Shown here: positions 16,889-17,732 of the stretch, in pieces
Numbering within the stretch: the stretch's first letter is position 1
Layout: every line of letters starts with the position of its first letter
Assembly: GCA_964016885.1 (NCBI GenBank)
Contig: OZ024741.1
Span: 172,484,001 to 172,548,000 of the forward strand
DNA from: Eledone cirrhosa
Lineage: Eukaryota
Reading direction: 5' to 3'
Length of the DNA: 64,000 bases
Notes under the pieces: generated by a model
Database searches by the model: none
What the model was told of the DNA's origin: nothing
Seen by the model: the letters and a program-made list of their open reading frames with translations, nothing else
Made by a program: the position numbers and the translations under genes

Positions 16889-17732
16889 TACTGGATTTTA
16901 CCATCAGTCCAGGGTCCGGAAAAGTATCAACACATATATTTTTATTGTTTGACCCGAATTACTTGGTCGTTTTGTTTTGGCTGTGCGGATGATATGTTTA
17001 ACCATCATCTCAGTGTGTTTGGCCCTTAACGTATGTTGTAGCTCTGATTCATATGATTCATCGAGCGCTTGCCACACATATCGGACGTTGATTTTCGTTA
17101 ATTCCTGAGCTGAAAACGATTCTCGCTAATTTATATTTGTATTAATCTCCAGAGTCTAGCTATTGAGCAGTTAATTTTATTGATTTTTTCAGTTACTTAT
17201 ATTGACTGTTGAATGGCTCTGTTATATTTAACCATTCTGTCGAGAGCTTTATTGGATTTGTGATATTTTGCATTCTCGCAATAATACACAACTGAATCAT
17301 TCGCTTAATAGAGGTGTTACCTCCCTTGCTGAATCCCACGAGGGGTCAGTAATAGCCACACTATCTATAGCATCTTGGAGCAAAACCCGTTGATAACACG
17401 ACTGCCTTGTTCATCATATCACCAGAAGCCCAACATTCTTTATGTAGGCGGACAGTACCTGATTTGGAGTCGCAGAAACCAATACTGGATTTTACCATCA
17501 GTCCAGGGTCCGGGAAAGTATCAACACATATATTTTTATTGTTTGACCCGAATTACTTGGTCGTTTTGTTTTGGCTGTGCGGATGATATGTTTAACCATC
17601 ATCTCAGTGTGTTTGGCCCTTAACGTATGTTGTAGCTCGGATTCATATGATATATCGAGCGCTTGCCACACATATCGGACGTTGATTTTCGTTAATTTCT
17701 GAGCTGAAAACGATTCTCGCTAATTTATATTT
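16889..17732 (+). mobile_element. Non-coding tandem element, 594-bp unit (1.4 copies), containing a hammerhead and flanked by (TA)n on both sides
   Basis: 16891-17138 repeats at 17485-17732; no conserved ORF. Confidence 0.85.
17386..17514 (+). ncRNA. Extended type I hammerhead (U3-A8 core)
   Basis: cccg TTGATAA ca cgact..agtcg ca GAAA cc aata ctgga(12 nt)tccag gg TC cggg; predicted cut after 17510. Confidence 0.8.

Follow-up and report, generated by a model that had tools for sequence, protein, structure and literature searches.

A non-coding repeat of about 600 nt is present in thousands of copies within TA microsatellites of the genome of Eledone cirrhosa. Each unit carries one type I hammerhead motif with a variant core. 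Two elements of this kind, A and B, lie in the window analyzed here, i.e., a stretch of 64,000 nt (contig OZ024741.1, positions 172,484,001 to 172,548,000 of the forward strand). The units of A and B are homologous, copies across the genome share a common structure and target, the core of the hammerhead is conserved, and no coding frame is present. We read the A/B family as a hammerhead-bearing, non-coding retrozyme that is likely mobilised by a Penelope-like, probably Neptune-type, reverse transcriptase, and place the probability of this reading at about 0.65.

Animal non-LTR retrozymes were described by Cervera and de la Pena in 2020 (PMC7229834), and the field has been reviewed (PMC6765202). 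A Penelope origin of retrozymes was argued by Li, Clavereau and Pollet in 2026; the portion of their preprint used here covers 35 genomes, with no mollusc among them, and reports Penelope pseudo-LTR homology in 24 of 57 Xenopus families and cleavage of one of nine Xenopus retrozymes (10.64898/2026.07.22.740005). Both the copying mechanism of animal retrozymes and the enzyme involved are so far only proposed. The present family lends itself to this question through its young, identical arrays of 15-18 units, its putative priming site at a fixed position, a stop at the predicted cut that can be measured, and coding elements of the same genome that have the same rare core and are candidate partners.

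The features of the two elements are collected in the table.

Table. Features of elements A and B in the 64,000-nt window
Feature	Position	Strand	Basis or detail
(TA)n target flanking A on the 5' side	16791..16890	.	
Element A, 1.42 units of a 594-nt repeat, 5'-truncated	16891..17732	+	repeat comparison, genomic loci
Upstream truncated unit of A	16891..16916	+	leftover 3' half of stem III and GUC
Conserved middle block of A	17168..17182	+	pattern containing the block: 2,808 genomic matches, control 0
Predicted type I hammerhead of A	17386..17514	+	fold with imposed junction
Stem I and core of hammerhead A	stem I 17386-17389 with 17511-17514; core UUGAUAA 17390-17396	+	
Other parts of hammerhead A	long stem II 17397-17474; GAAA 17475-17478; stem III to 17509	+	predicted cut after 17510
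ACCCG block, complementary to the first bases past the predicted cut	17546..17550 (also 16952-16956)	+	
Conserved 3'-terminal motif of A, TA-like stretch at its end	17711..17732	+	putative reverse-transcription start
(TA)n target flanking A on the 3' side	17733..17752	.	
Element B, 1.7 units of a 616-nt repeat, 5'-truncated, running into (TA)n	54419..55467	+	
Second hammerhead copy of B	54472..54607	+	one substitution in the stem I 3' strand (54604)
Predicted type I hammerhead of B	55088..55223	+	unconstrained minimum-energy fold is the hammerhead junction
Parts of hammerhead B	core UUGAUAA 55093-55099; stem II 55100-55178; GAAA 55179-55182		predicted cut after 55218

Within A, the segment 16891-17138 recurs at 17485-17732 with 5 differences in 248 nt, and B has 4 differences in 432 nt of repeated sequence. 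In a global alignment the two monomers are 60% identical, and the alignment score of 284 compares with 38 ± 15 for 300 dinucleotide shuffles (z = 16.7). The homology of units with periods of 594 and 616 nt, proposed in an earlier note made from the window's letters, is thus real. All six collinear blocks that it named are found where it placed them and in the same order (16946/54663, 17039/54752, CATATCG at 17077/54791, 17168/54881, 17321/55025 and 17382/55085), and both insertions end at a homologous point that is followed by (TA)n. That no reading frame is kept also held: 7 of the 34 gaps between A and B are multiples of three, the longest ATG-started frames of the two units are 45 and 57 aa, with none above 57 aa, and the units lack a reverse transcriptase and GIY-YIG reading frame. 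The note was right to suspect an old, non-coding, structured retroelement family, and its retrozyme lead was also right. Two further relatives that it suggested, at 36010-36215 and near 9380, were discarded, as a profile of the A and B units finds nothing at either, the hammerhead scan has no motif at 36010-36215, and 9090-9520 occurs once in the genome.

Searching the E. cirrhosa genome (3.0 Gb) at the DNA level yielded 3,337 first-look candidates with A as the query and 737 with B. The candidates scored, 40 for each element, were mostly 95-100% (A) and 98-100% (B) identical to it. A pattern spanning the ribozyme had 844 genomic matches (control 0) and a looser, general hammerhead-motif pattern 4,585 (control 0); these counts are of units, not insertions. 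The copies examined were the first 100 listed of the 844, the 2,808 and the 4,585 matches, all on one contig (C1). At 95%, 51 copies formed 25 clusters, and they divide into three clades, which are 60-95% alike. The window's A and B rank among the most distant of the 51; the looser pattern adds a fourth clade. Judged by sequence, A and B are two branches of one family with at least four clades.

The motif consists of a stem I strand, UUGAUAA, a stem II of about 77 nt (75-80), GAAA, stem III, GUC and the complementary stem I strand, with an extra base on each side of stem II. Stems I and III are 93-100% paired. Block 17382/55085, which the earlier note had taken for a promoter or reverse transcriptase recognition motif, is actually the stem I strand together with the catalytic core. 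To avoid circularity, copies were chosen by the middle block, which lies outside the ribozyme (2,808 matches). Among the 100 listed there were 32 independent insertions, and the 23 that remained after exclusion of 9 fetched earlier form the unbiased sample. The core reads YUGANRA in 23 of 23; U4, G5, A6 and A9 are invariant, while position 7 takes all four bases (7 C, 6 G, 6 A and 4 U). GAAA...GUC could be read in 20; of the other three, two match one of these 20 exactly in their units and one is interrupted. The hammerhead consensus predicts such a variable position 7 flanked by invariant bases, and the sample fits the hammerhead core U4 G5 A6 N7, A9, G12 A13 A14, A15.1-U16.1 and H17.

The 3-8 pair is less strict. 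It is U3-A8, a Watson-Crick pair, in both window units, and in the 23 unbiased copies it is U-A in 14, U.G in 6 and C.A in 3, so that 9 of 23 are non-Watson-Crick. Position 8 flips repeatedly between A and G, with 8 changes on the tree. When Y3, R8 and U7 were allowed, the pattern had 1,162 matches, of which 844 were U3-A8; among the first 100 listed, 16 were not U3-A8, all of them U3.G8 and one a microsatellite look-alike. One C3-G8 copy (L118) was considered as a compensatory double change and discarded because its sister copy has G8. U3-A8 is a known natural variant that occurs in Penelope elements (PMC4209133), and hammerheads with it are active in vitro (PMC3088659); for activity of U3.G8 or C3.A8, no paper was found in the literature searched. 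The G10.1-C11.1 pair is present in 19 of 27 representatives and is replaced by A.C in the A clade. The loose 3-8 pair and the loss of G10.1-C11.1 in the A clade suggest a ribozyme that is slow or assisted.

The predicted fold is favourable in most representatives. In 18 of 27 the junction fold coincides with the free minimum-energy fold, and in 24 of 27 the difference is at most 2 kcal/mol. For the window copy of A, the imposed junction fold has -27.8 and the free fold -29.5 kcal/mol (a cost of 1.7 kcal/mol), and the junction (P = 0.05) is not the best fold. Although G10.1-C11.1 is gone and another fold is preferred over the junction, the A clade is abundant and young. In the B clade, stem II outperforms shuffles in folding; it does not do so in A or C. 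A second candidate core in B, CUGAUAGA, was discarded because it sits within stem II and is unable to form stem I.

We also considered a DNA-level repeat, i.e., a satellite or a non-autonomous Helitron-like element, in which the hammerhead would be a chance look-alike. Long homogeneous arrays fit such a repeat, as does the absence of a hammerhead match in Rfam, which has no match in the window at gathering score and, at E up to 10 in 16880-17740, six weak matches, none of them a hammerhead. Rfam equally misses the canonical-core hammerhead motifs elsewhere in the window, which weakens this point. The fixed 3' end with random 5' truncation, the core with its free position 7, the stop at the predicted cut and the sister families that have a canonical core in the same junction all speak against a DNA-level repeat, and we consider it very improbable.

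Covariation was examined with a tree-aware test in which substitutions were simulated on the family tree and pairs were scored by a G-test with APC correction. The covariation that the earlier note had read from the two units was not borne out: with 67 representatives (also with 47), no pair in the ribozyme or the 5' domain reached E < 0.05. The power of the test is low because few pairs have enough substitutions (at least 10 in 13 of 41 and 6 of 70 of those proposed), and stem II is off by one column between clades in the alignment. The stem III extension does differ between the units as described (CTGG/CCAG vs CTAG/CTAG); it amounts to essentially one clade-level event.

Helix-level tests were marginal and lend weak support to the proposed selection on the RNA fold. 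In one clade, pairs changed on both sides numbered 7 vs 4.5 ± 1.4 expected in the ribozyme domain (p = 0.067) and 1 vs 4.5 in the 5' domain. When pair-keeping changes were compared between internal and terminal branches, p was 0.033 in the 5' domain and 0.32 in the ribozyme. In a shuffle control that ignores relatedness, paired cells were matched in 0 of 500 shuffles, and pairs changed on both sides did not exceed the control (204 of 500). Canonical-fraction p-values were set aside as inflated because the structure was derived from a member of the family. The fold is plausible, and covariation provides no proof of it.

All 30 fetched genomic A loci have their 3' end at the same point, and all B loci whose end lies inside the fetched stretch share one end point; across subfamilies, this end is 213-252 nt downstream of the predicted cut. 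Of 86 insertions with a terminal ribozyme, which include one duplicate fetch and two local duplications, 63 have TA at the 5' junction. The 5' ends are scattered along the unit, leaving 5'-truncated copies. Among the 18 insertions that reach one full unit upstream, 7 stop within the 27 nt past the predicted cut, at 3-25 nt from GUC, where 1.5 are expected (p = 0.00035), and 15 of the 30 top A loci, a score-biased sample, also stop just past it. In several loci (L069, L157, L165, L074, L085, L107 and L184) the 5' end lies at the putative internal TA-like priming site, which yields approximately one permuted unit.

Head-to-tail arrays of up to 18 units occur in several subfamilies. Ten arrays were examined: five dispersed ones share an identical 615-nt modal unit, and two have zero differences across 15 and 17 full units. 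In three arrays (L260, L050-L055 and L035/L046/L060), array-private variants are interspersed with the family state in non-adjacent units. These may reflect template mixing, DNA exchange or an assembly artefact. Three contig sets of one sample, whose kind is not on record, contained no joints.

We propose that transcripts of the repeat would be cut after GUC into unit-length RNA, some of which would be ligated into circles, unless the enzyme jumps across the cut ends. A GIY-YIG endonuclease would nick (TA)n, and copying, primed internally at a TA-like site whose position is fixed (213-252 nt downstream of the cut), would proceed up to the RNA 5' end and may continue through the junction. A TA-like start within a non-coding RNA makes priming by microhomology possible. 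The predicted outcome is short 3' fragments, copies of 1.4 units that stop just past the cut, and arrays of up to 18 units. In this scheme, the interspersed array-private variants count against copying from circles because copying of a single circle does not predict them.

A precedent exists in a Penelope element of Anolis, for which internal initiation of reverse transcription was shown, with a ribozyme that is protein-assisted and dispensable for insertion in vitro (PMC11167929, in the sections drawn on here). The same study reports unprocessed RNA as the main in vitro substrate, which favours the main rival to our reading, a Penelope-driven element that is copied from uncut linear or multimeric transcripts, with a hammerhead that is slow or dependent on protein. 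The pile-up of 5' ends would then mark a transcription start near +1, and arrays would derive from parent arrays or local DNA exchange. The non-Watson-Crick 3-8 pairs, the loss of G10.1-C11.1 in successful subfamilies and the interspersed private variants agree with it. On the other hand, the core has stayed intact, with position 7 free, across clades that are merely 60% alike, and 5' ends begin right past GUC, which a promoter need not cause. We judge copying of uncut multimers from a promoter near +1 rather unlikely.

Coding Penelope-type elements are plentiful in the genome, with fragments in the window. A GIY-YIG search gave 10,596 candidates, of which 150 were scored and 50 loci fetched, with frames of up to 1,096 aa among the matches. 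Coding elements with a CxxxxCxxC-GIY-YIG arrangement carry UUGAUAA, UUGAAAA or UUGAC(A/G)A cores in short hammerheads; in the text consulted, the CxxxxCxxC linker before GIY-YIG marks the Neptune/Nematis type (Craig et al., 10.1101/2021.04.23.441226). In one TA-targeting coding family, stem II is flanked by an extra base on either side and the tail measures approximately 200 nt. Pattern, flank and GIY-YIG searches (50 loci fetched of 150 scored) found no partner with shared sequence, and a comparison of A/B units with the 3' UTRs of two TA-targeting coding families gave no alignment above shuffles, so that the link to coding Penelope elements is architectural only.

The resemblance in core type and tail length to coding Neptune-type elements would also be expected if the units were terminal repeats of a coding Penelope element not yet found, and most copies its truncation products. 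The copies examined, being the first listed on one contig (100 of 844, 100 of 2,808 and 100 of 4,585), leave room for such an element. However, copies of sufficient length run into another unit and never into a reading frame, the 5' flanks of the 86 insertions lead into neither a reading frame nor shared non-unit sequence, several subfamilies form head-to-tail arrays of ~600-nt units, and the UTRs compared do not align above shuffles. Units of this origin are thus improbable.

Several coding elements were observed along the way. One locus on contig C1 (L315, 145870000-145877500) is a Penelope-type element whose 938-aa frame is flanked by two identical U3-A8 hammerhead motifs that lie 4,979 nt from each other. 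Positions 44554-51300 of the window hold an inverted, partial-tandem Penelope-type element, which we take to be Hydra-like; its canonical hammerheads, at 46488-46542 (-) and 51182-51236 (+), lie about 100 nt from (TA)n. Broken Penelope-type ORF fragments lie at 2194-3149 and 11041-13706; they comprise a Neptune-type piece, which has a GIY-YIG match and ends near (CA)n, as well as a pair in inverted orientation from another clade.

We class the A/B family as a variant of the animal non-LTR retrozymes, and no description of it was found in the literature searched. With the retrozymes, as far as the published portions used here describe them (PMC7229834; 10.64898/2026.07.22.740005), it shares tandem units that are non-coding and contain a single type I hammerhead, low GC, a range from monomers to long multimers, and co-occurrence with Penelope elements. 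Its unit length falls inside the retrozyme range of 51-972 bp (10.64898/2026.07.22.740005) and exceeds the invertebrate examples cited, at 170-400 nt. It differs in its U3 core with A or G at position 8, where the retrozymes of both sources are canonical, in the ~77-nt stem II and in the extra base on both sides of that stem. For the fixed internal 3' end and the (TA)n targeting, no counterpart was found in the parts of the two sources used. Retrozymes are characterised by linear and circular unit-length RNAs, which are predicted for A/B.

Like the hammerheads of Penelope pseudo-LTRs (PMC4209133; Neptune/Nematis, 10.1101/2021.04.23.441226, both as far as cited), those of A/B are type I with an extra base after A9 and U3-A8, and the copies are partial tandems at a microsatellite target with a tail past the ribozyme. 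Unlike the pseudo-LTR elements, A/B has no reading frame, a stem II about 10 times longer, and a stem III long enough for a monomer fold, where that of the pseudo-LTRs is a short palindrome; nor does it share sequence homology with the two coding Penelope UTRs compared. As in Anolis Poseidon (PMC11167929, in the same sections), the target is AT-rich and reverse transcription of A/B would start inside the RNA, downstream of the hammerhead, and so set the genomic 3' end. The Poseidon start is non-homologous to the target and lies in the ORF, whereas that of A/B is TA-like and in non-coding RNA. The main text of an octopus repeat annotation (PMC13282606) does not contain the words hammerhead, ribozyme or retrozyme; the library of that annotation, Repbase and Dfam may hold A/B sequence unclassified.

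Of 70 representatives, 59 have the ACCCG block in a form compatible with pairing, spaced +17 to +67, and sister families have a similar block after the cut. The block could pair with the new 5' end. When it was included in the fold, representatives with a stem I probability above 0.5 dropped from 34 to 2 of 45. Shuffled downstream sequence acts alike (0.17 vs 0.22), so that an anti-ribozyme switch has no specific folding support and is a lead only.

A more far-reaching interpretation, which we regard as possible and hold tentatively, is that these motifs form a distinct hammerhead subclass, with a ~77-nt stem II, extra flanking bases and a relaxed pyrimidine-3/purine-8 combination, that would be active with the aid of a Penelope protein, be locked after transcription by a conserved hairpin of the new 5' end with ACCCG, and have driven a long radiation of retroelements with circular RNA. 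If so, more than 4,500 ribozyme copies in this genome are unseen by standard ribozyme models, and genomic copies record both the cut site and the start of reverse transcription, which would make the rolling-circle model for animal retrozymes directly testable. Should long-stem-II cores with U3.G8 and C3.A8 cleave, natural hammerheads would follow a looser consensus than is built into search descriptors, and the number of such elements in invertebrate genomes would be higher than counted so far.

Other hammerhead families were also seen. A second non-coding tandem (TA)n family (L119-L138 and L147-L151; e.g., L137, unit 839 nt) has a canonical-core hammerhead with a branched stem II of ~80 nt, a palindromic stem III and the same junction bases as A/B; of 602 pattern matches (control 39), 100 were listed, and most of these belong to it. 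This 839-nt family is unrelated to A/B, and other small families share the junction bases with a canonical core. Neither A nor B has sequence similarity above shuffles to sister family D. Low-copy elements that end in (TA)n and carry long-stem-II hammerheads were found at L124/L139, L142, L143, L191 (a tandem of ~510 nt), L195, L201 and L205. The canonical-core type I motifs of the window, none of which is found by Rfam, are at 19180-19210, 43352-43421, 44330-44405, 62815-62884 and 63849-63924. Finally, the window contains a large segmental duplication (~36558-44480 and 51465-63900), in which repeats and ORFs match at offsets of ~14.9 and ~19.5 kb, and element B is present in the second copy only (51465-63900).
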